NCBI GenBank assembly: GCA_030636765.1
Contig: DAOVWI010000001.1
Span: forward strand, 3,951-67,950
From: Gemmatimonadales bacterium
GTDB taxonomy: Bacteria; Gemmatimonadota; Gemmatimonadetes; Palauibacterales; Palauibacteraceae
Reading direction: 5' to 3'
DNA: 64,000 bases
Shown: piece after piece, positions 2,359 to 51,655 of the stretch
How the letters are laid out: each line of letters begins with the position of its first letter
How positions within the stretch are numbered: position 1 is the stretch's first letter
Made by a program: the position numbers and the translations under genes
Notes under the pieces: model-generated
Seen by the model: only the letters and a program-made list of their open reading frames with translations
Told to the model about the DNA's origin: nothing
Databases searched by the model: none

Positions 2359-4812
2359 ATGGCCCCCGCGGAGACCGGCATGAGCCCGGAAAGCCCCCAC
2401 GATCACGCCCTCAGGCTGATCGAGTTCCCCCGGATCCTCGAGCTCGTAGCGCGCCTGGCCACCAGCCCGCTCGGCGCGGAGTGGGTGAGGGCCCTTCGCC
2501 CGCACCTCGAGCGCGAGGCAGCGACCAGGGCGCTCGCGGCGACCGACGACATGGTCACCTTCCTCCTTCGAACGCCAGACTGGGCTCCGCCTCCCGTTCC
2601 CGATGTGCGAGCCGCGCTGGGCCGTCTGGAGATCGATGGGTCGGTGCTGGACGAAGAGGCGCTGGCCGGCATCGCCACCCTGCTGCGCTCCTCCCGCCGG
2701 GCCAGAGGCGAGATCCGGAGGCGCTCGGAGGCGTTCGGCTACGTCGGCGAGCTGGCGGACGGGCTCGTGAAGAGGACCGACGTGGAGGAGCGGCTTGATC
2801 GCTCCCTGGACAGCGCCGGGGAGGTGGCGGACGGGGCCTCTCCGGCCCTCGCGAGGCTGCGGCGGCAGATGCGCTCCGAGCGGAGCACGCTGGTCGCACG
2901 GCTCGAGCGCTTCGCCGGGGCGCTACCCGAGCGCTTCGGGGTGGCGGACGCCTCGATCACGATACGCTCCGGCAGATACTGCGTACCGATCCGCCGTGAA
3001 GGTCGGTCGCACGTGGGTGGTCTCGTGCACGACGAATCCGCCAGCAGTCGGACGCTCTTCGTCGAGCCGCCCCTTGCCATCGAGCCGATGAACCGGGTTC
3101 GGGAGCTGGAGCTTTCCGAGCGCCGTGAGGTGCGCCGAATTCTGAGCGAACTCACCGAGCTTCTGCGTCCGCTTGTGGATGCGTTGAGAGGGTGCTTGAA
3201 AGCTCTCACGGAGATCGACGCCCTGTTCGCCAGGGCGACGTACGCGCTTGCGCACGGCGGGACGCGGCCCGAGCTCGGTGCGGATGGCGATCGCGGTATC
3301 TACCGCATCAGAGGGGGCTACCACCCGATCCTCCTGGCGGTGGACGAGCGTGCGGTTCCGTTCGATCTGGAGCTTGCCCTGCCGGAGACGGTGGTTCTCG
3401 TCAGCGGGCCGAATGCCGGCGGAAAGACGGTGCTCCTGAAGGCGATCGGGCTGGTGTCGGCGATGGCACAGAGCGGCATCGTCCCGCCCGTCGGGGAGGG
3501 AACCGCTCTGCCGACCTTTCGCAGCTTCTTCGCGATCATCGGGGACGAGCAGTCCATCGATGCGTCTCTCTCGACGTTCAGCGCTCAGATCGCGAACCTG
3601 CGCGAGATCGTGGAGAGAAGTGACCGTTCGTCGCTAGTGCTGATCGATGAGATCGGCGGCAACACGGATCCGGCAGAGGGTTCGGCGCTCGCCGCCGCCA
3701 CGCTGCTTCGGCTGGCGGGCCAGGCGGCTCTTTCGGTGGTGACCACGCACCTGGGAGATCTGAAGACGCTGGCAGGTGAGGACGAGAGGGTCGTGAACGC
3801 CTCGCTCCAGTTCGATCCCGGGACGCTTCGGCCCACCTACCGACTGGTTCGGGATCGGCCCGGCCGCAGCTACGCGCTCGAGATCTCCGAGAGGCTCGGG
3901 CTGCCCGACGACCTGCTTGCCGCCGCCCGTGGCCGGCTGTCGACCGGTACGCGGGCGCTGGACGCAGTGCTCTCGGAGCTGGAGGTCCGGGAGGAGGAGC
4001 TTGGACGGCTCCGGGCCCGTCTGGATCTCGACCATCGGGAGCTGGAGAGGGTGCGCGAGGGGCTCGAGAAGGCGCTGGCGGAGGCGGAGCACCGGGAGAC
4101 GGAGCTCGCGGATCGCGAGAGGGCGCTGGAGACCGACGGCCGCCGGCGGGCCGAGCGATACCTGCTGGATGCGAGGCGTGAGGTGGAGCAGGCGATCGAG
4201 CGGCTGGAGGCGCGTTACGGCGATGCCATGAGCACATCCGCCGGGGCGACCGCCCGGGATCCGGCGACGATCGCCAAGGAGGCGCGCTCGACGGTGGAGC
4301 GGTCGCTCCAGGAGCTGCGCAGGGGGACGGCCGAGGCACGCCCGGTCGCGAAGGACGCCACGGAGGTGGGAGCCGGGGACTTCGTTCGTGTCGCCTCTCT
4401 CGGGAGGGGAGGCCGCGTGCTCGAGCTGCGGGGCGGCCGCGCGATCATAGACGCCGGCGGCGTCAGGCTCACCGTCCCGGTGGAGGAGCTGGAGGCGGAT
4501 GAGGAGCCTTCTCCGCCGCGGATGAGGGGGCATGGGACCCTCCGGATGCCCTTGCTGGAGGCCCGTCCGGAGGTGGACCTCCGGGGCTTGCGTGCCGACG
4601 AGGTCGAGGCGCTTCTCGTGCCGGCGATCGACGCGGCGATCCAGGCGGATCTTCCCTCGCTGCGTATCATACATGGGAAGGGTACCGGGGCGCTGCGCGA
4701 GGTGGTTCGGGAGCTGCTCGCCGGAGATGGGCGGATCCCGAGCTTCAGGCTCGGCAGCCACGAGGAGGGCGGAAGCGGCGTCACGCTGGTCGAGCTGGTA
4801 AAGGGCACATGA
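2359..4812 (+). CDS. mutS2: Endonuclease MutS2
   Basis: MutS ATPase Walker A (VVLVSGPNAGGKTVLLKAIG), long coiled-coil region, C-terminal Smr domain (LRIIHGKGTGALREVV...). Start is ATG 2359 (MAPAETG); an alternative GTG lies at 2338. Confidence 0.9.
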   Translation: MAPAETGMSPESPHDHALRLIEFPRILELVARLATSPLGAEWVRALRPHLEREAATRALAATDDMVTFLLRTPDWAPPPVPDVRAALGRLEIDGSVLDEEALAGIATLLRSSRRARGEIRRRSEAFGYVGELADGLVKRTDVEERLDRSLDSAGEVADGASPALARLRRQMRSERSTLVARLERFAGALPERFGVADASITIRSGRYCVPIRREGRSHVGGLVHDESASSRTLFVEPPLAIEPMNRVRELELSERREVRRILSELTELLRPLVDALRGCLKALTEIDALFARATYALAHGGTRPELGADGDRGIYRIRGGYHPILLAVDERAVPFDLELALPETVVLVSGPNAGGKTVLLKAIGLVSAMAQSGIVPPVGEGTALPTFRSFFAIIGDEQSIDASLSTFSAQIANLREIVERSDRSSLVLIDEIGGNTDPAEGSALAAATLLRLAGQAALSVVTTHLGDLKTLAGEDERVVNASLQFDPGTLRPTYRLVRDRPGRSYALEISERLGLPDDLLAAARGRLSTGTRALDAVLSELEVREEELGRLRARLDLDHRELERVREGLEKALAEAEHRETELADRERALETDGRRRAERYLLDARREVEQAIERLEARYGDAMSTSAGATARDPATIAKEARSTVERSLQELRRGTAEARPVAKDATEVGAGDFVRVASLGRGGRVLELRGGRAIIDAGGVRLTVPVEELEADEEPSPPRMRGHGTLRMPLLEARPEVDLRGLRADEVEALLVPAIDAAIQADLPSLRIIHGKGTGALREVVRELLAGDGRIPSFRLGSHEEGGSGVTLVELVKGT

Positions 4813-4820
4813 AGGCTCAG

Positions 4821-5008
4821 CAGGTCGCTGAAAAACCCTGGTGGGTCGCGCGCATGGGTTACGGCGGCGTGGGGGCATCTCCTGCGTTATCGCTCCTCCC
4901 CGATACGCACGGTATCGCCTTCGTCGCGCCGCCTTGGATCTGCGGGGCACCCGCCGCAGGTGGGTCCGGCGCTCATAACGCGACCCACCAGGGTTTTTCA
5001 GCGACCTG
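4821..5008. repeat. TIR-bounded repeat element, copy 1 (188 bp)
   Basis: Left arm CAGGTCGCTGAAAAACCCTGGTGGGTCGCG (4821-4850) and right arm CGCGACCCACCAGGGTTTTTCAGCGACCTG (4979-5008) form a perfect 30-bp inverted repeat. The ~85-nt internal core is 81/85 identical to copy 2. It begins 9 nt after the mutS2 stop. Confidence 0.85.
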
Positions 5009-5044
5009 TCATGGGCAGCCGAGGTCGTTCGCGGCCGGGGTTCG

Positions 5045-6910
5045 GTGGTAAGCGACGCTCTCGTAGAGGAGATTCGGGCGCGCGCGGATCTCGTGGAGAT
5101 CTGCAGCGAGCACATGGCGCTGAAGCGCGTCGGAAAGAGCTACCGCGGTCCGTGCCCCCTCCACGGTGGTGAGGGGAGGAACTTCTCGGTCGATCCGGAT
5201 CGGGGAATCTATAAGTGCTTCGTGTGCGGCGAGGGGGGAGATGCCTTCGCCTTCGTGATGCAGCTTCTCGGCTTGGATTTTCCCGGTGCGGTGCGGTACG
5301 TGGCCGACCGGGTGGGTGTCGAGATCCCGGATGCCGAGGATCGGCGACCCGATCCGTACGCGGGCCTCCGCGAGGTGACGGCCTTCGCCGAGGAGTGGTT
5401 CGTAGGGCGCCGGAAGAGCGAGGAGGGCCTCGCGACCCGGGAATACCTGAAGGGGCGTGGCTTCGACGAGGAGACGGCCGACCGATACGCCCTGGGATTC
5501 GCCCCTGACTCCTGGCGCGGACTTCGCGACGCGGCGCGCGAGCGGGGCATCGGCGATGAGGTGCTGCTGGAGGTAGGGTTGCTCGCTGCCAGCGAGCGGG
5601 CCGCCGAGCCGTATGATCGATTCCGCAACCGCCTGATCTTCTCCATCCAGGACACGCGGGATCGGCCGATCGCGTTCGGGGGCCGCTGGCTGGGCCCGGG
5701 CGACCGCGACACGCCGAAGTACATCAACTCGCCGGACTCTCCGATCTTCGAAAAGGGACGCACCCTCTACCTGCTGAACGCTTCCCGTCACGCCATGAGA
5801 CGCGCGAAGGCTGCGCTGGTGGTCGAGGGGTACATGGATGCGCTGACGCTGCACATCCAGGGCTTCGAGAACGCGGTCGCGCCCCTCGGCACTGCGCTGG
5901 GCGGCGCGCAGGCGGCCCTGATCGCCCGCTACGCATCCCGTGCCTACCTGATATACGATTCCGACGACCCGGGCCGACGGGCCAGCTTCCGGGCCGCCGA
6001 CACCCTGCTTCGAGAGGGCACTCACCCGCTGATCGTCACGCTGCCGCCCGGGGAGGATCCGGATTCTTTCGTCCGCGGGCAGGGGGCGGAGCGCTTCGCC
6101 GGACTCCTCGAAGACGCGATGGATGTGCTGGAGCTGAAGCTGAAGATCCTTGGCGAGCGGGGATACCTGGATTCGGCCGAGGGGCGGCGGCGGGCTCTCG
6201 ATGGGTTGCTCAGCACCCTGCGCGCCGTGCGCGATCCCGCCCTGAGCGACATCTATATCGGCCGGGTCGCCGAGACCACCGGCGTTCGCAGGGAGACGAT
6301 CGTCCACGAGGTCGCGCGGATGGCGTCGGCGCGGAGGGAGCGGCCGAGGCGCCGAGAGGCGGCACCCTCCGGGGCGAGCCAGGGGCGTCCGGACGGCGAG
6401 GTGGCGGCGGAGCGCAACCTCCTCCTCTTGCTTCTCAGAGACTCGCTGGTTACCGAGGGCTCGGCCTCGGCGCGATCGTGGGTGCGGCGCACCCTGGATG
6501 CAGGCGTGGGGCCCGAGCACTTTGAGGATGCGGGGTATCGCGCTCTGTATGGGGCCCTGACGGAGGCGCAAGTAGAGCCCGGCGCGGGCGAGCTGTTGGA
6601 GGCGTTTCCGAAGGAGCTGCGCCCGCTCGTAGATGGCCTGCTACGGGATGCCACCGAGCTGACGCATCCGGAAGAGATCTACGAGGCGTCCGTGGAGCGG
6701 CTCCTGTATCGTCCCGCCGAGCGACGCCTCCGGGAGATCCGGCGCGAGATGAAGATGGCCGACGAGGCGCAGAAGAGGGAGCTCTTGCGGGAGCAGATGC
6801 GTATCCGGGCGCGGCTTCCCGAAACGGAGAAGACTCGTCTGGCTCTGGTCCTTCCGTGGCTCGAGCGATACGAACCTTCCAGACTCGAAGAATGGCAGGG
6901 CGATGGATGA
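5045..6910 (+). CDS. dnaG: DNA primase DnaG
   Basis: Zinc-finger CPLHGGEGRNFSV...YKCFVCGEGGDAFAF, Toprim domain (VVEGYMDALTL...YLIYDSDDPG); GTG start. Confidence 0.95.
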   Translation: MVSDALVEEIRARADLVEICSEHMALKRVGKSYRGPCPLHGGEGRNFSVDPDRGIYKCFVCGEGGDAFAFVMQLLGLDFPGAVRYVADRVGVEIPDAEDRRPDPYAGLREVTAFAEEWFVGRRKSEEGLATREYLKGRGFDEETADRYALGFAPDSWRGLRDAARERGIGDEVLLEVGLLAASERAAEPYDRFRNRLIFSIQDTRDRPIAFGGRWLGPGDRDTPKYINSPDSPIFEKGRTLYLLNASRHAMRRAKAALVVEGYMDALTLHIQGFENAVAPLGTALGGAQAALIARYASRAYLIYDSDDPGRRASFRAADTLLREGTHPLIVTLPPGEDPDSFVRGQGAERFAGLLEDAMDVLELKLKILGERGYLDSAEGRRRALDGLLSTLRAVRDPALSDIYIGRVAETTGVRRETIVHEVARMASARRERPRRREAAPSGASQGRPDGEVAAERNLLLLLLRDSLVTEGSASARSWVRRTLDAGVGPEHFEDAGYRALYGALTEAQVEPGAGELLEAFPKELRPLVDGLLRDATELTHPEEIYEASVERLLYRPAERRLREIRREMKMADEAQKRELLREQMRIRARLPETEKTRLALVLPWLERYEPSRLEEWQGDG

Positions 6911-9954: not shown

Positions 9955-10467
9955 GTGACCAGATCGGAGAGGACCGCGGTGTATCCGGGCTCGTTCGACC
10001 CCCTCACGCTGGGGCACGATGACATCGTGCGCCGGAGCCTCAAGCTGGTGGATCGGCTCATCGTGACGGTGGCCTACACGGCAACCCAGGTGAAGCAGCC
10101 TCTCTTCGAGGTGAAAGAGCGGGTCGAGTTGCTGGAGCGCGTGTACGCGGACGAGCCGCGGGTGGAGGTGTCGTCCTTCCAGGGTCTCCTGGTGGACTTC
10201 GCCCGGTCGATGAGCGCGCCGATCATCATCCGCGGCCTCCGTGCGGTCAGCGACTTCGAGTACGAGTTCCAGATGGCGCTGATGAACCGCTCGTTGTGGC
10301 CGGAGATCGAGGTGATCTTCATGGCGCCGGCCAGCCAGTACACCTTCCTCAGCTCCTCGCTCGTCCGGGAGGTCGCGCGCCTCGGAGGCCGGGTGGCGGA
10401 CTTCGTCCCTCCGGTCGTGCTGGATGCCCTCATCGAGCGGGTGGGACCGAGCGTCGCCGGCGAGTGA
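9955..10467 (+). CDS. coaD: Phosphopantetheine adenylyltransferase
   Basis: [18 protein letters not shown] nucleotidyltransferase motif; GTG at 9955, in frame with the longer track ORF 9721..10467. Confidence 0.95.
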
Positions 10468-11459
10468 CCGCCCGGGACGGCTTTCTCCGCTCCCTGGAGG
10501 AACGGGCGCGTGCCGCGCCTCGTCGTATCGGTTTTCCGGAAGCGGGCGACGGCCGCACGATCGAAGCGATGGCCCGGTTGTCGGAGTGCGGCCTCGTGCG
10601 TCCGGTGGCGGTGGGAAACGAGGCCGAGCTTCGGCTGCTGCGGGCGCGTCTTCCCGGGGTCGAGTGTGTGGACGTGCAGCGTCCTCCCTCCGTGGTCGCG
10701 TCGGCCGCCGGTGAGCAGTCGGACGCCGGTGAGCAGTCGGCCGCCGGCGAGCAGTCGGAGGGATGCGATCCGGGCTCTCCCGTGCACCTGACGGCGCGCC
10801 TCCTGCGCGCCGGATGGCTGGACGGAGCCGTGGCGGGCGCGGGCACGCCGACCGCGCAGGTGATTCGGGCGGGCCTCCGCTGCGTCGGCCTGGCGCCCGG
10901 CACCGCTACGGTGTCCAGCGCGTTCTACATGCTGCTGCGGGAGCCCTCCCCATCCGGGTCCGCGGTGCTGACGTTCGCGGACGCCGGGGTGGTGCCGGAT
11001 CCCACGCCCGCTCAGCTGGCGGAGATCGCCGAGGGGGCGGGCCGGGCGCGCCGGTTGATCGTCGGGGACGAGCCCCGCGTCGCCTTTCTCTCCTTCTCGA
11101 CTCACGGATCGGCGGAGGGCCCGGCCGTCGATCGCGTGCGTGAAGGGTTCCGGCTCTTCCGGGAGCGCTGCCCGGAGATCGCCGCGGATGGAGAGCTTCA
11201 GCCGGACGCCGCTCTCGTCCCGGCGGTGGCAGCGATGAAGGCACCGGATTCACCGGTTTCCGGGAGGGCGAACGTGCTGATCTTCCCGGATCTCGATGCC
11301 GGGAACATCGCGTATAAGCTCGTGCAGCGGCTCGCGGGGGCAGAGGCGCTGGGACCGATCCTCCAGGGCCTCGCCCGGCCGCTGAACGACCTGTCGCGAG
11401 GGGCCAGCGTCGACGACATCGTTCATGTCGCCTGCATCACGGCCCTGATGGCGGAGTGA
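10464..11459 (+). CDS. pta: Phosphate acetyltransferase/butyryltransferase (short-form Pta)
   Basis: [16 protein letters not shown]...[21 protein letters not shown] is characteristic of the Pta/Ptb family; GTG start overlaps the coaD stop (GTGA). Confidence 0.8.
10704..10757 (+). repeat. In-frame 18-nt x3 tandem repeat inside pta ([18 protein letters not shown])
   Basis: gccgccggtgagcagtcg / gacgccggtgagcagtcg / gccgccggcgagcagtcg, read directly from the sequence. Confidence 0.85.
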
Positions 11460-32218: not shown

Positions 32219-33052
32219 GTGAAGGAGGACCTACGCCGCCGGTTGGTCGTCGCGGCCGTCGGCATTCCCGCTTCGCTCGTAGTCGTCTACCGAGGCGATG
32301 TCATCCTCGCCCTCGGGCTGAGCTTCCTCGCCGCCGTCGGCTTCTGGGAGTACGCCGTCATGATGCGCGAGGCGGGTCACCGGCCGTTCATCGGACTTGG
32401 CCTCCTGGCGGCTCTCACTTTTCCGCTCGCCGTCCGAACCCTCGGTTTTGGTGTGGCGTGGGCGGCGTGCGTGGCGTTCCTCGCGCTCGGCTCGGCGGTG
32501 GCGACGCTTCGTTTGCCGCCGTCCGAGCGCCCGATCTCGAACGCCGCGATCACGCTGTTCGGGGCCTTCTACTTGGGTGGCCTGCTCAGTTTCGGGGTTC
32601 CGCTGCGGGAGTGGTTCCTGCCGGGGAGAGTCGAGGGCACGCTACTGTTTTTCTACCCCGTCGTTGTGACCTGGATCACCGACACGGCCGCCTACGCAGG
32701 CGGCAGGACGTTCGGGCGTCGGCAGCTATCGCCGACCATCAGCCCGAACAAGACGATCGAGGGCGCCGTGAGCGCCTTGATTGCCGGACCCCTCGGAGCC
32801 CTGCTGTACGGGCTCTTGGTTCCCGTACCGGTGATCCAGGGGCTCGGCCCGACAACGCTTCTGGTTTTCGGGTTCTTCGTGGCTCTTCTCGCGATCATCG
32901 GAGATCTGGTGGAGTCCGCGCTCAAGCGGGAGTGTGGGCAGAAGGATGCCTCCGGGCTCCTGCCGGGTCACGGAGGCTTCCTGGACCGGCTGGACTCGCT
33001 CCTGTGGACAATCCCGGGCGCGTACCTGTTCTTCATGGCGATCGGCCTGTGA
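32219..33052 (+). CDS. cdsA: Phosphatidate cytidylyltransferase
   Basis: Multi-TM protein with C-terminal signature SALKRECGQKDASGLLPGHGGFLDRLDS. Confidence 0.9.
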   Translation: MKEDLRRRLVVAAVGIPASLVVVYRGDVILALGLSFLAAVGFWEYAVMMREAGHRPFIGLGLLAALTFPLAVRTLGFGVAWAACVAFLALGSAVATLRLPPSERPISNAAITLFGAFYLGGLLSFGVPLREWFLPGRVEGTLLFFYPVVVTWITDTAAYAGGRTFGRRQLSPTISPNKTIEGAVSALIAGPLGALLYGLLVPVPVIQGLGPTTLLVFGFFVALLAIIGDLVESALKRECGQKDASGLLPGHGGFLDRLDSLLWTIPGAYLFFMAIGL

Positions 33053-33060
33053 GCGTCTTG

Positions 33061-33392
33061 CAGGTCGCTGAAGAACCCTGGTGGGTCGCGCGCGACAGTC
33101 GCTGTCGCGCCTGTTACCGTCTTGTGAGTCGAGGACAAGGAACGAAGAGGAGTCGATGCCTTGTGCATCGTCGACGACGAGTGACGCCGTATTCGGCCAC
33201 AACCGGAGCGAGCGAAGCGAGAGGAGGTCGGCGCCAGCCAATCCCCATGCGCCCTGCGGGTTACGGCGGCGTGGGGGCGTCTCCGGCGTTGCCGCTCCTC
33301 CCCGATACGCACGGTATCGCCTTCGTCGCGCCGCCTTGGATCTGTCCCCACGGTGCTCGTAACGCGACCCGCCAGGGTTTTTCAGCGACCTG
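33061..33392. repeat. TIR-bounded repeat element, copy 2 (332 bp; ~165-bp internal insertion)
   Basis: Left arm CAGGTCGCTGAAGAACCCTGGTGGGTCGCGCG (33061-33092), right arm CGCGACCCGCCAGGGTTTTTCAGCGACCTG (33363-33392; 1 mismatch). Core at 33258-33344 is 81/85 identical to copy 1. It starts 9 nt after the cdsA stop. Confidence 0.85.
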
Positions 33393-33539
33393 CTTGGCCA
33401 GCGTCGGCACCGGCGGGCCGCCGGGGCACCGATCGTGCAAGCAGGGCGGCGGGGTTCCGGCTCGAATCGGGCCCTCCGCGTGCCGTGTGGGTGGAGACAC
33501 GGCGGAACCGAAGGCCGTCAGCTGGGGTGATAGCAGCCT

Positions 33540-34625
33540 ATGATCATAACGATTCTGGCCACCATCTTGGTGCTCGGCGTTCTCATCTTCGTGCACGAGC
33601 TCGGTCATTTCGCGGCGGCGAAGGCCGTGGATATCGAGGTTCCGCGCTTCTCGCTCGGCCTGGGCCCGAAGCTGATCGGGTTCAAGAAGGGGGAGACCGA
33701 GTATGTGATCTCGTGGTTCCCGCTCGGCGGCTACGTGAAGATGGCGGGGATGATCGAGGAGGAGGGGATCGGCGTGCTGGAGGGCGGGAAATCGGAGGGC
33801 CGGACGCCCTCTCCTCGTGACTTCGACGCCAAGTCGCTGCCGGCCCGGACACTCGTGATCTCCGCCGGCGTCCTGATGAACTTTCTCTTCGCTGTCGTCG
33901 CTTTCATCGTCGTGGCCCGCGCCCAGGGCATGCAGCTTCCGCTGATTCAAGATGTCGTGGAGGACTCGCCGGCGGCGACGGCCGGCTTCCGGCCCGGAGA
34001 CCTGATTCTCACGGTGGAAGGCAACCGCATCCGGAGCTTCAACGAGCTCTCGCTGATGGTGAAGCAGAACCCGGAAAAACGGATCCGCATCGGCGTCGAT
34101 CGCGCCGGCGAGCGCCTCACGCTCCAGGCCGTTCCCCGGAGCGTCCGGATCTGGAGCGACGTGATCAGAGATTCGGTCGAGATCGGGCAGCTGGGCGTGA
34201 GATCGGACCCAGGTGGCGGGTACCGGTCTCTCGGCTGGGGTGAAGCGATCGAGGAGGGCTCGTACCGCACCTGGTACTGGGTGCGCACGACCTTCGAGTT
34301 CCTGGGCCAGCTCGTGAGCGGGCAGAGCAGCGCCAAGGAGGTGGGCGGCCCGATCCTCATCGGCCAGCTGTCCGGCCAGGCGGCCCGCGCGGGCATCTGG
34401 CCGCTGCTGAGCTTCATGGCGATCATCAGCATCAACCTGGCGATCCTGAACCTGCTTCCCGTTCCCGTGCTCGATGGCGGCCACCTCACCTTCCTCGCTT
34501 TTGAGGCGGTGCGTGGCAGGGCGCTGAGCGCGGGTCAGCGTATCCGGCTGACCCAGGTGGGGATGGTGCTGATAGTCGGCCTGATGGTGTGGGTGATCAC
34601 GAACGACGTCCTGAGGCTCTTATAG
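33540..34625 (+). CDS. rseP: RIP metalloprotease RseP (site-2 protease)
   Basis: HELGHF zinc motif, PDZ domain, LDGGH motif. Confidence 0.9.
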   Translation: MIITILATILVLGVLIFVHELGHFAAAKAVDIEVPRFSLGLGPKLIGFKKGETEYVISWFPLGGYVKMAGMIEEEGIGVLEGGKSEGRTPSPRDFDAKSLPARTLVISAGVLMNFLFAVVAFIVVARAQGMQLPLIQDVVEDSPAATAGFRPGDLILTVEGNRIRSFNELSLMVKQNPEKRIRIGVDRAGERLTLQAVPRSVRIWSDVIRDSVEIGQLGVRSDPGGGYRSLGWGEAIEEGSYRTWYWVRTTFEFLGQLVSGQSSAKEVGGPILIGQLSGQAARAGIWPLLSFMAIISINLAILNLLPVPVLDGGHLTFLAFEAVRGRALSAGQRIRLTQVGMVLIVGLMVWVITNDVLRLL

Positions 34626-40982: not shown

Positions 40983-43312
40983 GGATCTCTCTCAATCCGG
41001 AACAGCAGGCGGCGGTCGAGCACGGGGATGGTCCTCTGCTCGTGCTCGCGGGGGCGGGCTCCGGGAAGACGCGCGTGCTCACCGCCCGGATCGCTCGGCT
41101 GCTGGAGACCGGGGTGCGGCCTCACCGGATCCTCGCCGTGACGTTCACGAACAAGGCCGCCGAGGTCATGCGGCATCGGATAGCCGGCCTGGTCGGACAC
41201 GAGCCCGCGGGGCTGTGGGCGGGCACGTTCCACTCCGTGTGCGCCCGGCTCCTGCGCCTCGAGGCCGACCGGACCGACCGTACCCGGTCGTTCACGATCT
41301 ACGACGAGAGCGATTCCGAACGCGCGGTGAAGCGTGCGATGGAAGAGGTCGACGTGGACCCGCGTCGCTGGGCCGCGGCTGCCCTGCGGGCCCGAATCTC
41401 CGATGCGAAGAACACTCTCGTGGGGCCGGATGATTACGCCGTTACCGCGTTCGATCCGCTCTCTCGCGTCACGGCCGAGGTGTATCCTGCGTACGAGCGA
41501 ACCCTGGCCAGCTGCAACGCCTACGACTTCGACGATCTGCTCGTTCGCGCCGTTCGCCTCCTCGAGGGGGATCCTCTCGTGTGCGAGAAGTACGGGGGAC
41601 GCTTCGCGTACATCCTCGTTGACGAGTACCAGGACACGAACCAGGCTCAGTACCGTCTCGTCCGTGCGCTCGCCAAGGTCCACGGCAACCTCTGCGTGGT
41701 CGGAGACGACGACCAGTCGATTTACGGATGGCGGGGAGCGGACATCCGCAACATCCTGGACTTCGAGCGGGACTTTCCGGGAACGACGGTCGTTCGTCTC
41801 GAGCAGAACTATCGCTCGACCGGATCCATTCTGGAGGTGGCCAACGCGATCATCGCCCGCAACCGGTCGAGGGTGGAGAAGCGGCTGCGCACGGACCGAC
41901 CCGACGGCCGTCGGGTGGTGGTTTCCGCGCTTCGAGATGAGCGGGCGGAGGCGGTGTGGACCATCCGTCGGATCGAGTCGCTCCGGGACAGCTACACGCT
42001 AGGAGATGTCGGCATCCTCTACCGGACGAACTCCCAGTCCCGCGCCTACGAGGATGCTCTGAGAGGGGCCCGATTGCCGTACCGCGTGGTGGGCGGCATT
42101 CGCTTCTACGAGCGCCGGGAGGTCAAGGACTTGCTTGCCTACCTCCGGCTCGTCGTCAACCCGGCCGACGACACAGCCTTCCTTCGGGCCGTGGGATGGC
42201 CTCGGCGTGGCGTGGGCGCCGTGTCCTTGGAACGGCTGGCGGCGGCCCGCTCGAGGGCCGCTCCCGGTACGGCGGCTGGCGGAAGCCTGCTCGCCGCAGC
42301 GGAGCGTGCGGACCAGGTGGAGGGTCTGTCGGGCGCGGCCGCGAAGGCCTTGAAAAGGTTCGCGGCAGGCATGGAGTCGCTTCGATCCCTTCTGCCGGAG
42401 GCCTCGGCCGTCGACGTGGCAGAGGAGTGCCTCCGGGCGTTCGGGCTTCGTAGCGCCCTCGAGGCCGAGGAGGACGGCGAGGACCGACTCGACATCGTGG
42501 ATGAGCTGATCGCCGGGATGGTCTCGTTTTCGGGGGAGCCGCTGGAGGAGGAGGCAGCGACGGAGGGTGGAGGTCTGGAGCTCTTTCTCCAACACGTGTC
42601 TCTCCTGAGCGATGTCGACGAGTACGATCCCGAGGAAGGTGTCGTCTCGCTGATGACGCTCCACAACGCTAAGGGCATGGAGTTTCCCGTGGTCTTCGTC
42701 GGCGGCGTGGAGGAGGGTCTCTTGCCGTTGGGCCGCTCCGCCGAGACTGCCGAGGGAGTAGAGGAAGAACGGCGCCTGTTCTACGTGGGCCTCACGCGCG
42801 CGATGGACCGGCTGTTGGTCACACACGTTGCCCGGCGATGGAGGGCCGGAAGCTCGATGCCGTGCGCTCCGTCCAGCTTCCTGGAGGACCTGCCGGAGCA
42901 TGCCGTCGAGCGCCGGATGTCCGGGACGACGGTGGGACGTCCGGGGCGACGGGGCTCCTCGAGTTTTCGCTCGTCGCCGCGTGCGACCTGGGCGACCGGG
43001 GCAGGTTGGTCCGGTGGTCTCGACGCGACGGCGGACGGCGGAGACTTCGGCTGGCGTTACGATCCCTCGATGGGGAGGATCGACAGCTCCGCGGCGGGAG
43101 CCGATACCGAGCCCGTCTACGACTACTCGGAGAGCCAGGAGCCCTTCGAGCTCACGGTAGGCGGCCGCATCGTCCACCCGCGCTTCGGCCACGGAACCGT
43201 AGTCACGCTGAGCGGTGACGGCATGGGCGCCAAGGCTCGCATCGACTTCGACGGGGGTGGGGTGAAGACGCTGCTGGTGGCTCACGCCGGCCTGCGTCCA
43301 GCGCCGGGGTAG
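40979..43312 (+). CDS. pcrA: ATP-dependent DNA helicase PcrA/UvrD
   Basis: Walker A AGAGSGKTRVLT, motifs VDEYQDTNQAQY and TLHNAKGMEFPVVFV, C-terminal Tudor-like tail; GTG overlaps the histidine kinase stop. Confidence 0.9.
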   Translation: MRISLNPEQQAAVEHGDGPLLVLAGAGSGKTRVLTARIARLLETGVRPHRILAVTFTNKAAEVMRHRIAGLVGHEPAGLWAGTFHSVCARLLRLEADRTDRTRSFTIYDESDSERAVKRAMEEVDVDPRRWAAAALRARISDAKNTLVGPDDYAVTAFDPLSRVTAEVYPAYERTLASCNAYDFDDLLVRAVRLLEGDPLVCEKYGGRFAYILVDEYQDTNQAQYRLVRALAKVHGNLCVVGDDDQSIYGWRGADIRNILDFERDFPGTTVVRLEQNYRSTGSILEVANAIIARNRSRVEKRLRTDRPDGRRVVVSALRDERAEAVWTIRRIESLRDSYTLGDVGILYRTNSQSRAYEDALRGARLPYRVVGGIRFYERREVKDLLAYLRLVVNPADDTAFLRAVGWPRRGVGAVSLERLAAARSRAAPGTAAGGSLLAAAERADQVEGLSGAAAKALKRFAAGMESLRSLLPEASAVDVAEECLRAFGLRSALEAEEDGEDRLDIVDELIAGMVSFSGEPLEEEAATEGGGLELFLQHVSLLSDVDEYDPEEGVVSLMTLHNAKGMEFPVVFVGGVEEGLLPLGRSAETAEGVEEERRLFYVGLTRAMDRLLVTHVARRWRAGSSMPCAPSSFLEDLPEHAVERRMSGTTVGRPGRRGSSSFRSSPRATWATGAGWSGGLDATADGGDFGWRYDPSMGRIDSSAAGADTEPVYDYSESQEPFELTVGGRIVHPRFGHGTVVTLSGDGMGAKARIDFDGGGVKTLLVAHAGLRPAPG

Positions 43313-43314
43313 CC

Positions 43315-43683
43315 GTGAGCCCAGGACGGCGGCGGAAGGATGACGCTGGGCGCGTCGATCCCGAGGAGCTTCGGCACCTCGCCGACCTTGCTGGCCTGGA
43401 ATTGCCGGAAGCGGAGATCGGGCGCCTGGCCGCCGAATTGGGGGTCGTTCTCGGAGACTTCGCACGGATCGAGGCTCTTCAGGCGTCCGCTGAGGCTCTG
43501 CACCGGCCCGCTGAGCCCTCCCCCGGTGACCGCGGCCTCGAGCCGCGCCTGCGCCCCGATGCGGTCGCCCCGGATTCCCTCAGCGGACCCCTGTCGGGCA
43601 TCGCTCCCGACTGGCGGAATGGCTTCTTCGTAGTGCCCCGGTGCCGGGTCTTCGGCGAACGGGCAGGGCAGGGTGACGAGTGA
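43315..43683 (+). CDS. gatC: Asp/Glu-tRNA amidotransferase subunit C (with N-terminal extension)
   Basis: VDPEELRHLADLAGLELPEAEI resembles the GatC N-terminus; followed directly by gatA. Confidence 0.8.
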   Translation: MSPGRRRKDDAGRVDPEELRHLADLAGLELPEAEIGRLAAELGVVLGDFARIEALQASAEALHRPAEPSPGDRGLEPRLRPDAVAPDSLSGPLSGIAPDWRNGFFVVPRCRVFGERAGQGDE

Positions 43684-45128
43684 CCGATCCGCTCTGCTCG
43701 CTGCGCGCGGCGCATGAGTTCGCCGGCCAGGCTCCCGAGGTGGGGGGGCAGCTCCTGGAGCTGGCGCTCGAGCGCGCCCGAAACCAGGAGAGTGGACGTC
43801 GTCCCATCCACGCCTTCCTGAGCCTCGCGGAGCCGCCGCCCGACGCCTGGCGTGCTGCCTCCAGGTCTCCAGCGGGCTCTCCCCTGGCAGGGATTCCCGT
43901 CGCCGTCAAGGACAACATCTGCACACTTGGACTGCCGACCACGTGCGGCTCCCGGATTCTGGAGGCCTATGTGTCGCCCTTCGCGGCTACGGCTGTGCGG
44001 CGGCTTGAGCGAGCCGGTGCCTGGATTGTCGGTAAGACGAACCTGGACGAATTCGCTATGGGCTCGTCCACCGAGACGAGCGCGTACGGTCCGACACGCA
44101 ACCCGGTAGATCTGGATCGCGTTCCGGGCGGCAGCTCGGGTGGCTCGGCGGCCGCTGTGGCCGCGGGTGTCGTCCCGGTCGCCCTCGGTTCGTCCACGGG
44201 CGGTTCGGTACGGCAGCCGGCGGCTATGTGTGGTGTGGTCGGCGTAAAGCCGACCTACGGTCGCGTGAGCCGCTACGGTCTGGTCGCGTTCGCGTCCAGC
44301 TTGGATCACATAGGCGTGTTCGCCCGGTCCGTGCGGGATGCCGCCCACGTGCTGGAGGCGATCGCCGGCTGCGACGAACATGACGCCACGAGCGGCCGGC
44401 AGGAGGTTCCTCGGGCGGCCGCGCTCGACGACGTTGATCTGAGTGGAGCGGTGATCGGTGTGCCGGGCGAGTACCTCGGGGCAGGTCTCGATGGCCGAAG
44501 TCGTCGCCTCTTCAAGCGAGCCGTCGAGACGGCGGAGCGAGGGGGCGCCAGGGTGGTTCCTATCTCCCTTCCGACCACGAGCGCCGCCATCGCCTGCTAC
44601 TACGTGGTCGCGCCGGCGGAGGCATCGGCCAACCTCGCGCGCTACGACGGAAGTCGCTACGGCCTGCGCAGCTCAGGTGCGGTGGCCTACTCGGAGGCGG
44701 TACGGCGCACCCGAGGCGAGGGGTTCGGCGATGAGGTGAGGCGGAGGATTCTCCTGGGCACGTACGTGCTGTCGGCTGGTTACAGTGAGGCGTACTACCG
44801 GCGGGCGCGCGACATGCGCGGCGCGATCCTCGAGGATTTCGGGCGCGCCTTCGCCCGGGTCGATGCCGTCTTCGCTCCCACCACCCCGACACACGCGTTT
44901 CGATTCGGCGAGAAGGCGGATCCGTATGACATGTACCGGTCCGACGTATACACGGTGGCCGCGAACCTCGCCGGGATCCCGGCGGTCTCTATACCGATCG
45001 GCAATGTGGATGGCCTTCCGGTCGGAGCGCAGCTTATGTGCGGTCGGTGGAGGGAGGAGCAGATGCTTGGGATCGCCGCGGCGCTCGAGGAGCTTCTCGA
45101 GTACCGTCACCCTCTGACACGTCGCTGA
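43680..45128 (+). CDS. gatA: Glutamyl-tRNA(Gln) amidotransferase subunit A
   Basis: Amidase signature GGSSGGSAAAVAAG plus catalytic Ser-cisSer-Lys region. Confidence 0.95.
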   Translation: MTDPLCSLRAAHEFAGQAPEVGGQLLELALERARNQESGRRPIHAFLSLAEPPPDAWRAASRSPAGSPLAGIPVAVKDNICTLGLPTTCGSRILEAYVSPFAATAVRRLERAGAWIVGKTNLDEFAMGSSTETSAYGPTRNPVDLDRVPGGSSGGSAAAVAAGVVPVALGSSTGGSVRQPAAMCGVVGVKPTYGRVSRYGLVAFASSLDHIGVFARSVRDAAHVLEAIAGCDEHDATSGRQEVPRAAALDDVDLSGAVIGVPGEYLGAGLDGRSRRLFKRAVETAERGGARVVPISLPTTSAAIACYYVVAPAEASANLARYDGSRYGLRSSGAVAYSEAVRRTRGEGFGDEVRRRILLGTYVLSAGYSEAYYRRARDMRGAILEDFGRAFARVDAVFAPTTPTHAFRFGEKADPYDMYRSDVYTVAANLAGIPAVSIPIGNVDGLPVGAQLMCGRWREEQMLGIAAALEELLEYRHPLTRR

Positions 45129-45188
45129 GACACCCTGGTGGGTCGCGCGAGACAGTCGCTTTCGCACCTGTTACCGTCTCGTGAGCCG
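45121..45188. repeat. Repeat-element remnant, copy 3 (left TIR plus ~40 nt of the copy-2-type insert)
   Basis: GTCGCTGAgacACCCTGGTGGGTCGCGCG followed by agacagtcgctttcgcacctgttaccgtctcgtgag, which matches the copy-2 segment gacagtcgctgtcgcgcctgttaccgtcttgtgag. The gatA stop TGA lies inside the TIR. Confidence 0.75.
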
Positions 45189-45193
45189 CAGCC

Positions 45194-46663
45194 GTGAACG
45201 GGCTCGAAACCGTCATCGGACTCGAGGTCCACGTACAGCTGCGGACGGTGTCGAAGATGTTCTGCGGATGCGCGGTGCGATTCGGCGCGCCGCCCAATTC
45301 GCTTGTATGTCCGGTGTGTCTGGGACTTCCCGGCGCGCTCCCGGTGGCGAACGAGGAGGCCGTGAGGCTCGCCGTGCGCGCGGCCCATGTGCTGGGATGC
45401 ACCGTGAACGCGACGTCGGAATTCGTCCGCAAGCAGTACTTCTATCCAGATCTTCCGAAGGGGTATCAGATCACCCAGCGTGCCGATCCCCTTGCACGAG
45501 GCGGTGCGATCGACCTGCCGTCCACGCGGGGTGGGCACCGCGTCCGGCTGCATGGGCTCCACCTCGAGGAGGACGCCGGGAAGTCGATTCATGACCGGTT
45601 CGAGGGTGCGACGGCCGTCGACCTGAACCGCGCCGGCGTTCCCCTCATCGAGATCGTTACCGAGCCCGATCTGCGCTCGCCGGAGGAGGCACGATTCGCT
45701 CTCTCCAGACTAAAGCAGCTCCTCGAGCACTACGCGAAGGTGAGCCACTGCAACATGGAGGAGGGAAGCCTCCGGGTGGACGCCAACGTCTCCGTACGAC
45801 CGGCCGGAGCAGGAAATCTCGGCACCCGGGTGGAGATCAAGAACCTGAACTCTTTCGGCAGCGTACAGCGCGCCCTCGCCTTCGAGGGACGGCGGATGAC
45901 GCAGCGGCTGGCGGCCGGCCGGCCGGTCGAAGCGGAGACGCGCCTCTACGATGCTGCCCAGGGGAGAACGCGGACCCTGCGTGGCAAGGAGGAGGAGCGC
46001 GACTACCGTTACTTTCCGGAGCCCGATCTCCCGCTGGTCGAGCTGTCAGCGTCGGAGGTGGAGGGGTTCCGCCGCGGGCTCCCGGCGAGCCCGCGGGAGA
46101 TCGAAGAGAGGCTCGTCAGGCAGTTCGGGTTTAGCGAGGATCGGGCGTGCCAGATCGCGGCGACCCCGGAACGGGCCGAGTACCTGGATGCGGCCGTGGG
46201 TGCTCGCGATTCGAGGTTCGCCGTGATCGCCGCGAACATGATCATCGGAGAGGTGGCGGCGGTCCTGAACCGTCGCGGTGGCGGGTCGGAGGCGGACGTC
46301 GTGGAGTCGGCGGAACTCGCCCGGCTCGTCGAGCTTCGGCTGCAGGGAGCGCTGAGCTCCCGCACGGCGGCGCTGGCCCTGCGGCTGCTCTTCGAGCAGG
46401 CCGCTCGCGGGGGCCGACGGCTCGACGTCGATGAGCTCGTGCGGCGGCGCCAGCTGTCACAGGTGGAGGACGCGGGCCGGCTTTCGGAGTGGGTCGACCG
46501 GGTTCTGGGAGGGTCTCCGGAGGAAGTTCGGAGATACCGGTCCGGCGACCGGAAGCTGCTTGGCTACTTCATGGGAGAGGTGATGCGGGCGTCCAGCGGG
46601 CGGGCCGATCCCGAGGCGGTCCGGCGGCGGCTCGAACGTGCCCTCGAGGAGAGGGAGGGTTAG
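45194..46663 (+). CDS. gatB: Aspartyl/glutamyl-tRNA amidotransferase subunit B
   Basis: VIGLEVHVQL..., CPVCLGLPGALPV... and C-terminal YqeY-like domain; GTG start. Confidence 0.95.
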   Translation: MNGLETVIGLEVHVQLRTVSKMFCGCAVRFGAPPNSLVCPVCLGLPGALPVANEEAVRLAVRAAHVLGCTVNATSEFVRKQYFYPDLPKGYQITQRADPLARGGAIDLPSTRGGHRVRLHGLHLEEDAGKSIHDRFEGATAVDLNRAGVPLIEIVTEPDLRSPEEARFALSRLKQLLEHYAKVSHCNMEEGSLRVDANVSVRPAGAGNLGTRVEIKNLNSFGSVQRALAFEGRRMTQRLAAGRPVEAETRLYDAAQGRTRTLRGKEEERDYRYFPEPDLPLVELSASEVEGFRRGLPASPREIEERLVRQFGFSEDRACQIAATPERAEYLDAAVGARDSRFAVIAANMIIGEVAAVLNRRGGGSEADVVESAELARLVELRLQGALSSRTAALALRLLFEQAARGGRRLDVDELVRRRQLSQVEDAGRLSEWVDRVLGGSPEEVRRYRSGDRKLLGYFMGEVMRASSGRADPEAVRRRLERALEEREG

Positions 46664-46681
46664 AGGGAGGGTTGAGGTGGG

Positions 46682-50113: not shown

Positions 50114-51655
50114 ATGAGCGAACAGATACCTGTCGTTGAGGCGTTTCGGGTGATGACGGCGAACAAGTCGTTGTCGGAAGAGGAGTTGTACGACCTCATC
50201 CGCGACGGCATTCACGCCGCGCTCGCCCGACGCTTTGGTGGGCCGGTCGAAGCTGAGATCCAGATCATGCCGGACGGAGACATCCAGATCGTCGTCCTGA
50301 AGGAAGTCGTCGAGGAAGTGGAGGATCCGGCTCGTCAGATTCTTCTCGAAGAGGCGCGCTGGGACGATCCCGATTTCCAGGTCGGGGACCTCCAGGAGAT
50401 CCCGGTCGACTTCAGGGAGTTCGGCCGCGGCGCCGTCATGGCTGCCAAGCAGAGGATCATCCAGCGTGTGCGTGAGGGCGAGCGTGAGCACATCCGCGAG
50501 GAGTTCAACGACCGAGTCGGTGAGCTGGTGTCCGGCGAGGTGCAGTCGATCCAACGGGGGACACTGGTCGTTCTGCTGAATCGGGCCCGGGAAGCCGAGG
50601 CCATTATCCCGTGGCGCGAGCAGAATCCGCGCGAGCGATTCCGGCAGGGAGAGTCAATCCGTGCCGTCCTCAAGAAGCTGGAGGAGACGCCGAGAGGACC
50701 TCGGCTGATCCTTTCGCGCGCGGATCCCGGCTTCGTGGCGGCCCTCTTTTCGCTGGAGGTGCCGGAGATGTATGAGGGGCTGGTGGAGATCAAGGAGATC
50801 GTGCGGGAGGCGGGTGGCCGCACGAAGGTTGCGGTTTCCTCGCGCGACGAGTCGGTAGATCCGGTCGGCGCTTGCGTCGGCGTGAAGGGATCGCGGGTCC
50901 AGGCTGTCGTCTCGGAGATGGGCGGGGAGCGCATCGACATCGTGCCATGGCATCCGGATCCGGAGATCTTCGCGCGCCGGGCGCTTGCTCCGGCGCGAGT
51001 GGCCAAAGTGATATCGGATCAGTCGAGGAAGGTCATCACGGCGATCGTGGACGAGGATCAGCTGTCTCTGGCGATCGGCCGAAACGGCCAGAACGTGCGT
51101 CTCGCTTCACAGCTGATTGGATGGCAGCTCGACCTCTACTCCAGCCGGGATTGGATGGAGCGCGGCGCCGAATCGATTTTCTTCGGCGGCGACGATGAGT
51201 ATGAGGTGGCGGACTTCCCCCTCTCGGAGCTCTCCGGCATCACGCCGGCCTCTCTGGCGGCGCTCGAGGCGGCGGGCATCCACTCCTTCTTCAACGTGCT
51301 CGACAAGGACAAGCAGGACTTCATACAGGTGCCGGGCATCAGCGAGGAGGAGGCTGAGTCGCTGATGGCCCTCATCGATGAGCTTACCGTGGTCGAGGAG
51401 ACGGACGTAGAGGCGGCGGAAGTGGAAACCGATGCTGCTGCGGAAGCCGACGCCGTCGTGGACGCCACGGAGGGCGCGGAAGCCACGGAAGTCGAGGCCG
51501 CCGTGGAAGCCACGGAAGCCGACGCCGTCGTGGACGTCGCGGAAGAGACCGACCCGGAAGCGGACGCTGTCGTGGACGCCACGGAGGGCGCGGAGTCAGA
51601 CGTCGAGGTGGAGGTCGTGGCGGAGGAGCTCGTTGCCGAGGAAAAGGGATCGTGA
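50114..51655 (+). CDS. nusA: Transcription termination/antitermination protein NusA (acidic repeat tail)
   Basis: N-terminal domain, S1 domain, KH1/KH2 (GACVGVKGSRVQAV, LAIGRNGQNVRLAS), HhH AR region, acidic C-terminus. Confidence 0.95.
   Translation: MSEQIPVVEAFRVMTANKSLSEEELYDLIRDGIHAALARRFGGPVEAEIQIMPDGDIQIVVLKEVVEEVEDPARQILLEEARWDDPDFQVGDLQEIPVDFREFGRGAVMAAKQRIIQRVREGEREHIREEFNDRVGELVSGEVQSIQRGTLVVLLNRAREAEAIIPWREQNPRERFRQGESIRAVLKKLEETPRGPRLILSRADPGFVAALFSLEVPEMYEGLVEIKEIVREAGGRTKVAVSSRDESVDPVGACVGVKGSRVQAVVSEMGGERIDIVPWHPDPEIFARRALAPARVAKVISDQSRKVITAIVDEDQLSLAIGRNGQNVRLASQLIGWQLDLYSSRDWMERGAESIFFGGDDEYEVADFPLSELSGITPASLAALEAAGIHSFFNVLDKDKQDFIQVPGISEEEAESLMALIDELTVVEETDVEAAEVETDAAAEADAVVDATEGAEATEVEAAVEATEADAVVDVAEETDPEADAVVDATEGAESDVEVEVVAEELVAEEKGS
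51443..51600 (+). repeat. Imperfect ~40-nt tandem repeats encoding (E/A)ADAVVDATEGAE in the NusA C-terminus
   Basis: gaagccgacgccgtcgtggacgccacggagggcgcgga recurs three times with minor changes. Confidence 0.8.

Follow-up and report, generated by a model that had tools for sequence, protein, structure and literature searches.

Three copies of an inverted-repeat element in the window

The DNA analysed here (the window) is a stretch of 64,000 nucleotides from a Gemmatimonadales bacterium (GenBank assembly GCA_030636765.1, contig DAOVWI010000001.1, positions 3,951 to 67,950 of the forward strand), in which an inverted-repeat element occurs three times. By Pfam, its neighbour genes encode MutS2 and DnaG (copy 1), CdsA and RseP (copy 2), and GatA and GatB (copy 3). 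The window DnaG is 100% identical to a protein of a Gemmatimonadota metagenome-assembled genome (MAG) at NCBI. All of the ~58 open reading frames (ORFs) of the window that were scanned with Pfam are housekeeping genes, so the window represents core chromosome; none of them encodes a transposase, as an earlier interpretation made from the letters alone (hereafter the sequence-only reading) had held for the whole 64 kb. The repeat belongs to a real and recently mobile family of Gemmatimonadota that had not been described before, and it is an element of a well-known kind.

Copy 1 (4821-5008) consists of a left terminal inverted repeat, CAGGTCGCTGAAAAACCCTGGTGGGTCGCG (4821-4850, plus strand; the A side), a right one (4979-5008, minus strand; the B side) that is its exact reverse complement (30/30), and the 128 nt that separate these arms (4851-4978, plus strand). 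This interior comprises the right-hand domain, with the core at 4856-4942 and within it the hairpin CGATAC-GCACG-GTATCG (4901-4917), and an optional mini-hairpin, ACCCGCC-GCA-GGTGGGT (4949-4965); the left domain is wholly deleted. Copy 2 (33061-33392) is bounded by the same arms (A side 33061-33090, plus strand; B side 33363-33392, minus strand), each with one difference from the copy 1 arm, which leaves them complementary to each other at 28/30 positions. Its interior (33091-33362, plus strand), resolved by the alignment of 33 copies and their consensus fold, holds an optional hairpin, CGCGACAG-TCG-CTGTCGCG, a left domain with the hairpin CGATGC-CTTGT-GCATCG, an optional module of ~40 nt and then the right domain, whose core (33258-33344) is 95% identical to that of copy 1 over 87 nt. 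Copy 3 retains a degenerate left arm (CACGTCGCTGAGACACCC...; 45118-45147, plus strand; 27/30 match) and a remnant of the left interior module (45148-45188, plus strand); no other part of the element remains, and the gatB start is at 45194. This region is 83% identical to 33049-33131 of copy 2 over 83 nt, with the ~40 nt after the arm common to both, and the family profile matches it at 45121-45193 in nhmmer. The remnant is also found in the metagenome contig L044, a contig 92% identical to the window. Arm matches in the window number five, compared with 0.00 expected from 100 shuffles, and no further copies were found in the window by nhmmer or blastn with the family profile.

The perfect arms of copy 1, the same arms around copy 2 and the near-identical cores are as the sequence-only reading described them, and so is the remnant, which it had placed at 45121-45188 and whose arm we now trace from 45118. 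That reading had also stated that every copy starts 0-9 nt after a stop codon. This is right for copies 1 and 2, which begin 8 nt 3' of the TGA stops of mutS2 and cdsA, and wrong for copy 3, where the in-frame gatA stop (45126-45128) sits within the arm. Copy 3 is an eroded remnant that now provides the last codons and the stop of gatA.

Target-site duplications and empty alleles

In 11 of the 35 complete copies of the family the arms are flanked by a perfect 4-bp direct repeat, and in about 11 more the two flanks match at 3 of 4 positions. CTAG/CTAG pairs were found at seven loci (L017, L027, L036, L040, L041, L057 and L061), and non-palindromic pairs at four: TTAG/TTAG (L042), CTAA/CTAA (L087), CGAG/CGAG (L054) and the CTTG/CTTG of window copy 2 (33057-33060 and 33393-33396). 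Since these last pairs are not palindromic, the flank is a duplication and not an extension of the inverted repeat, and the duplication is 4 bp long, not a TA dinucleotide. Window copy 1 has TCAG on its left (4817-4820) and TCAT on its right (5009-5012), a 3/4 match.

Both complete window copies can be compared with alleles that carry no element. For copy 2 this allele is in the Logan contig L106, whose CdsA is 97% identical: L106 reads CTGTGAGCGT-CTCG-GTGAGCGTCGGCAC where the window reads CTGTGAGCGT-CTTG-[332 nt]-CTTG-GCCAGCGTCGGCAC, the close-up of the junction being GCGT-CTCG-GTGAGCGTCGG in L106 and GCGT-CTTG-[332 nt]-CTTG-GCCAGCGTCGG in the window. The same site is also without the element in more distant relatives. 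The site of copy 1 offers an allelic series among strains whose DnaG falls in one 90% cluster. The empty allele (L126) has a 50-nt mutS2-dnaG spacer reading GAAGGC-TTAT-GGGCAG, and the window and L125 read GAAGGC-TCAG-[188 nt]-TCAT-GGGCAG, which is 192 nt longer, that is, 188 + 4. Sister strains carry a 293-nt version (L112) or a 329-nt version (L124) at this site, and window copy 1 corresponds to the L124 version after the loss of 141 nt flanked by TGGGT microhomologies. In the remaining strains (L113-L123, L127 and L128) there is an overlap between the stop of mutS2 and the start of dnaG.

At both complete window copies, therefore, the occupied and empty sites differ by the element plus 4 bp. 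Together, the empty alleles and the series of 188, 293 and 329 nt establish that the element is an insertion, that it was recently active in natural populations and that it was later eroded by internal deletion. Target-site duplications on complete copies and clean empty alleles in close relatives were among the things that the sequence-only reading had proposed to look for, and both were found.

A dispersed family with members in two phyla

A search with the arm pattern GCTGANNNACCCTGGNGGGTCGCG returned 42 loci in contigs representing one genome per species and 63 in metagenome contigs, 105 further loci overall, with 124 distinct arm flanks. The Gemmatimonadota MAG KW1-S21_123 has at least 18 loci and M8-62_Bin_309 has 13; three other Gemmatimonadota MAGs have one each. 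Outside this phylum, the Thermoanaerobaculia MAG CAMYNM01 carries five (L002, L012, L017, L020 and L027), on contigs of 88-842 kb, and another Acidobacteriota MAG carries one. A single match in a Cyanobium MAG looks like chance. Many of the arm matches lie at contig ends, as expected because repeats break assemblies. Not every locus holds a complete element, others having arms with internal deletions or solo arms.

The outermost six bases of the arm distinguish subfamilies (CAGGTC, GAGGCT, GAGGTC and GAGCTT). This tip is always the same on both arms of a copy, and the inner 24 nt hardly vary, even between phyla: the Thermoanaerobaculia subfamily, with the tip GAGCTT, has the same inner arm sequence and no right-hand core. 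On this comparison, the near-identical arms in two phyla imply that the element and its partner have probably passed horizontally between Gemmatimonadota and Acidobacteriota.

The sequence-only reading had said what would overturn an element family, namely that the window copies were the only ones or that they arose by a segmental duplication including the flanking genes. What we found is the opposite on both counts: more than 100 further loci with the arm lie in other genomes and metagenomes, and no such segmental duplication is seen.

Target preference and the position after stop codons

Among the 124 flanks, the outer tetranucleotide is CTAG in 44, CCAG in 9, GTAG, CTAA and TTAG in 6 each, and CTGG and TCAG in 5 each, the rarer ones including CTTG (2) and CAAG (1). 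The window is 67.9% GC, and CTAG occurs in it 26 times where 188 occurrences are expected from base composition, a depletion of about seven-fold. Of the 115 typed arm flanks, 27 have in the duplication a TAG or TAA that serves as stop codon to an incoming long ORF with high GC at third codon positions. At L038 the element lies between TTAG and CTAG-ATG, so that it sits on the stop of one gene and directly before the start of the next.

We propose that at 68% GC, with CTAG depleted, the usable and harmless targets would largely be TAG and TAA stops and short intergenic spacers. CTAG being palindromic and duplicated, the upstream gene would keep its stop codon because the target is copied, and the insertion would survive. 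Target preference together with purifying selection against intragenic insertion probably suffices to explain the position after stop codons. A simple CTAG preference in a GC-rich genome would in this way steer insertions to stop codons and operon spacers.

Two further observations concern the flanks that depart from CTAG. Chief among these are CCAG, CTGG and GTAG, all a single transition from CTAG, a pattern that we take to be the one expected if CTAG sites decay through a bias like that of very-short-patch repair. Where the two flanks agree in 3 of 4 bases, the changed copy is often the one that does not serve as a stop codon.

The probable mobiliser

The most likely mobiliser is an IS5-type transposase acting in trans. 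A putative DDE transposase encoded elsewhere would bind both arms, cut a CTAG-like target (YTAR, CWAG) with a 4-nt stagger and then join the element into it. An IS5-type source is favoured because the length and the sequence spectrum of the duplication match IS5, which duplicates 5'-YTAR-3' (PMC5009759) and for which the recorded targets are CTAG 15, CTAA 3, TTAG 3, CAAG 1, CTTA 1 and CTTT 1 (PMC5493358; see also PMC10379815). The family flanks likewise are 4 bp long, follow YTAR and have CTAG as the commonest sequence.

The autonomous partner was sought as a transposase gene between the element ends, whose arm-tip sequences are GAGGCTGCTGAAGAACCCTGG or CAGGTCGCTGAAGAACCCTGG. In 702 kb of loci, arm tips in inverted orientation at spacings of 600-4000 bp amounted to chance pairs only. 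Among plasmids, blastn with the arm and subterminal sequence gave chance hits only, and the viral contigs scanned gave no match. MAG assemblies break at repeats, and the absence of an autonomous partner from such material therefore carries little weight. It is possible, too, that the mover is a transposase not yet linked to ends of this kind.

Identity of the element

[quoted passage not shown] MITEs are typically shorter than 500 bp and are further recognised by inverted repeats at their ends, direct repeats on either side, the lack of coding capacity and a transcript that forms a stem-loop (PMC10969869). The 35 complete copies measure 171-390 bp (188 and 332 bp in the window) and end in 30-bp arms; the direct repeats are those described above. 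The elements are too short for a transposase gene, and their lengths show no periodicity of 3. Dispersal is evident from the 124 distinct flanks, and insertion polymorphism from the empty alleles of both complete window copies. The family thus has every structural attribute of a prokaryotic MITE, the autonomous partner being the one feature not found. The MITE-like element that the sequence-only reading had listed among its three options is the one that these results bear out.

Several points weigh against this assignment or its details. No autonomous copy, with arms and a transposase gene, is present in the 702 kb of loci plus the window. The arm tips do not resemble the IS5 repeat above shuffles (p 0.1-0.5; IS5 from plasmid Rts1 only) and are not significantly IS5-like, so the IS5 assignment derives from target choice alone. 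IS701-family elements likewise give 4-bp duplications, though their terminal consensus does not fit (PMC2266710). Roughly one in three complete copies has no duplication that can be recognised. In the window itself, the copies sit at atypical targets (CTTG; TCAG/TCAT) within short spacers, 8 nt beyond a TGA and not on a TAG. Finally, the covariation and strand asymmetry treated in the next section suggest constraints beyond simple selfish spread.

No description of MITEs from Gemmatimonadota was found in the literature searched. The family adds a well-documented MITE to two poorly studied and mostly uncultured phyla, Gemmatimonadota and Acidobacteriota (Thermoanaerobaculia). Annotation also gains from recognising these repeats, which interrupt MAG assemblies, give rise to spurious ORFs and can supply gene ends. 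In addition, the element can serve as a strain marker, since near-identical strains differ in its presence or absence and in its internal deletions.

Internal structure and a possible RNA role

An alignment of 33 complete copies (A1) reveals a modular interior: a left domain with the hairpin CGATGC-loop-GCATCG, a right domain (the core) with the hairpin CGATAC-GCACG-GTATCG, a helix, GTTACGGCG/CGCTCGTAAC, prolonging the right arm, and optional modules besides. One of these, the mini-hairpin ACCCRCC-loop-GGYGGGT (~20 nt), occupies three different positions across the subfamilies (A1 columns 35-54, 279-299 and 397-419); present in window copy 1, it is missing from L112 at the same locus. The mini-hairpin looks like the inner parts of both arms fused head to head, and it may have arisen by gene conversion between copies or be a unit that moves on its own.

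As single strands, elements are predicted to fold with energies of -125.6 kcal/mol (z-score -9.5) and -193.1 kcal/mol (z-score -7.4). RNAalifold predicts 62 pairs in the alignment, with compensatory changes in 26. When internal pairs only are considered, 97.1% of the cells are paired and changes on both sides occur in 18 of 33 pairs, values reached by none of 500 shuffles, with slid controls 26-46% paired; the compensatory changes mostly separate two or three subfamilies and so represent few independent events. The two strands differ. Taking as the A side the arm followed by CGCGC, the consensus energy of the A-to-B strand is -81.4 kcal/mol versus -55.1 for its complement, and the A-to-B strand folds better in 26 of 33 copies. 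The alignment has 129 G.U cells versus 27 A.C cells, a count biased by the structure having been predicted on the A-to-B strand. As to orientation, elements between co-directional genes lie in the sense direction in 10 cases versus 2. An early count of the element end beside an incoming stop codon, made before metagenome loci were added, gave ~13:2, and over all arms, metagenome loci included, the bias is ~2:1.

An element inside an operon would be co-transcribed, and its transcript could fold into a long hairpin of arms and internal helices, with the sense A-to-B strand predicted to fold better. Judged from these folding models, the structure hints at a constraint on single strands, whether of RNA in the transcripts of operons or of DNA while the element transposes. 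One could go further and, from the strand-specific, covarying interior and the sense orientation in operons, regard the family as more than a selfish MITE, its operon copies acting as intercistronic RNA modules (in processing, stability or translational uncoupling) and its choice of CTAG being a homing on TAG stops. We consider this unlikely. If true, homing on TAG stops would let the element enter between tightly packed or overlapping genes without damage to them.

A stronger form of the same idea is that the repeat is primarily a cis-acting structured RNA module, an intercistronic or 3'-untranslated-region stabiliser or processing site, which the host selects and transposition only disperses, in which case the operon copies would be functional. 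The internal helices with compensatory changes between subfamilies speak for it, as do the better consensus fold of the A-to-B strand, the excess of G.U over A.C cells and the sense orientation in co-directional pairs. Against it, the compensatory differences go back to a small number of events separating two or three subfamilies, the prediction of the structure on the A-to-B strand biases the G.U count, and the orientation bias is just ~2:1 over all arms. Moreover, sister strains do without the element at both window sites, with no replacement visible, and copies decay by deletion. Promoter and terminator consensus scans of copies 1 and 2 were negative. Identity with an Rfam RNA family was ruled out, no covariance model matching: at gathering thresholds the only Rfam match in the window was tRNA-Met, and copy 2 gave none up to E = 10. 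A structured RNA as the primary nature of the repeat, the third option of the sequence-only reading, is thus improbable; as a secondary property of the MITE it is compatible with the covariation and the strand bias.

Other explanations

A second alternative keeps the MITE and changes its mover. An IS630/Tc1-mariner- or IS427/IS711-type transposase would duplicate only the TA within CTAG, the outer C and G belonging to the target. CTAG is indeed the commonest flank, and IS711 duplicates TA within YTAR (PMC2266754). Perfect 4-bp repeats without a central TA (CTTG/CTTG and CGAG/CGAG), as well as CTAA/CTAA and TTAG/TTAG, contradict it. It would need extra mutations at the element tips, and the arithmetic of the empty sites is the element plus 4 bp. 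With non-palindromic 4-bp repeats in hand we reject a TA-only duplication, and hold a mover of this type very unlikely.

Even less can be said for the remaining option of the sequence-only reading, repetitive extragenic palindromic (REP) or BIME-like palindromes kept by a RAYT-type tyrosine transposase or by host processes and serving as a terminator or insulator. Like REPs, the family consists of GC-rich palindromes placed after stop codons, in intergenic positions within operons. REPs are imperfect palindromes of 20-40 nt without terminal inverted repeats or target duplications, linked to RAYT transposases and often in tandem. The present units are 171-390 bp long, have 30-bp inverted repeats and 4-bp duplications and stand as single copies, with no tandem BIME-like arrangement among them; in copies 1 and 2, the terminator scan detected no stem with a T-run behind it. 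We see hardly any chance that this option is correct.

A small protein gene translationally coupled to the upstream gene, to which the ATGA or GTGA overlaps with the upstream stop in copies 1 and 2 and the ORFs 4809-5051 and 33049-33543, open in the same frame through arm and core, would point, has next to no probability, given that the element plus duplication is a multiple of 3 in just 6 of 17 copies, that elements occur in both orientations relative to their neighbours, that the through-ORFs have no Pfam match and that long spurious ORFs are expected at 68% GC. With neither length periodicity nor domains we reject coding, as the sequence-only reading had done in stating that no ORF is conserved; its argument that the reading frame differs between copies was mistaken, the arm-to-core distances of copies 1 and 2 differing by 162 nt, or 54 codons, which keeps the frame.

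Other observations in the window and its relatives

Leaving the element aside, the window lineage has a mutS2-dnaG spacer of ~50 nt (4813-4816 plus 5013-5044; GGCACATGAAGGC...GGGCAGCCGAGGTCGTTCGCGGCCGGGGTTCG). Many sister strains have no such spacer but overlapping genes (AAGTGGTAAGC), and the spacer alters the C-terminus of MutS2 from ...VKW to ...VKGT. Between cdsA and rseP, a 45-nt segment of the spacer (~33448-33492; AGGGCGGCGGGGTTCCGGCTCGAATCGGGCCCTCCGCGTGCCGTGT) is absent from L106, independently of the element.

A larger difference concerns the genes around copy 3. The block 43313-46677, which contains gatA (43680-45128) and gatB (45194-46663), is absent at the syntenic position in L037, a contig of MAG KW1-S21_123 that is 92% identical on both sides. 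The missing block spans from the stop of a uvrD-like gene (43310-43312) to ~46677, and its junctions in the window carry an imperfect direct repeat, CCGTGAGCCCAGGACGGCG / GGTGGGTCAGCCCAGCCGGCG. L044 has an arrangement like that of the window. The difference could reflect a deletion, a relocation of gatCAB or an artefact of MAG assembly.

The same contig, L037, has an almost identical version of the non-coding segment 49352-49566, which lies between a Cu-oxidase_4 (PgeF-like) gene and rimP-nusA-infB. This segment has a fold z-score of -3.3, a terminator-like end (GUGGGG...CCCCAC-UUUUUU) and no credible Rfam match; by its predicted fold, it could be a leader or a small RNA. A copy of the element is found in L037 at 6423-6713, right after ...GGGGTACTGTAG, where the window (~49565) has none, and the synteny between L037 and the window stops at that element, which points to a rearrangement or to contigs having been joined at the repeat.

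Two ORFs of the window contain short in-frame tandem units. Five degenerate units of ~36-42 nt (CGGAAGCCGACGCCGTCGTGGACGCC...) lie at 51441-51594, near the 3' end of the NusA ORF, and three 18-nt units (GTCGGCCGCCGGTGAGCA) lie at 10700-10759, in the ORF 10296-11459 with a PTA_PTB domain.

Comparison with known systems

Besides the REP and BIME elements treated above, three kinds of described elements were compared with the family. The IS701 family shares the exact 4-bp target duplication (PMC2266710). It differs in its terminal consensus (---YACT-Y--YR), which matches neither GAGGCTGCTGAAGAAC nor CAGGTCGCTGAAGAAC of our family, and we found no documentation of a CTAG preference in IS701-family elements.

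Correia elements duplicate TA. The family described here, by contrast, reaches 390 bp and duplicates 4 bp at CTAG-like sites, and it has no sequence relationship with Correia (NEMIS, of Neisseria) or ERIC/IRU (of enterobacteria) elements. The likeness lies in their fate as RNA: Correia and ERIC elements are inverted-repeat elements of 100-160 bp in the intergenic regions of transcribed operons, where they are co-transcribed and fold into long hairpins able to affect mRNA processing and stability (see PMC3184786). By analogy, our family would behave like Correia or ERIC elements once transcribed.

The closest counterparts are the IS5-derived prokaryotic MITEs. The present family differs from them in that its cognate autonomous insertion sequence was not found and its arm tips are not significantly IS5-like, and in that its arms, at 30 bp, are long and scarcely vary between the two phyla. 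Its interior is modular, with covarying helices, and it is GC-rich, whereas MITEs are typically described as AT-rich (PMC10969869). In the other features compared the two agree: both stay below 500 bp, end in inverted repeats, lack coding capacity, occur in many scattered intergenic copies and make a 4-bp duplication in which CTAG far exceeds CTAA, TTAG and CAAG (PMC5493358, PMC5009759, PMC10969869). By its likeness to these elements, the family can be said to work as an IS5-derived MITE does.

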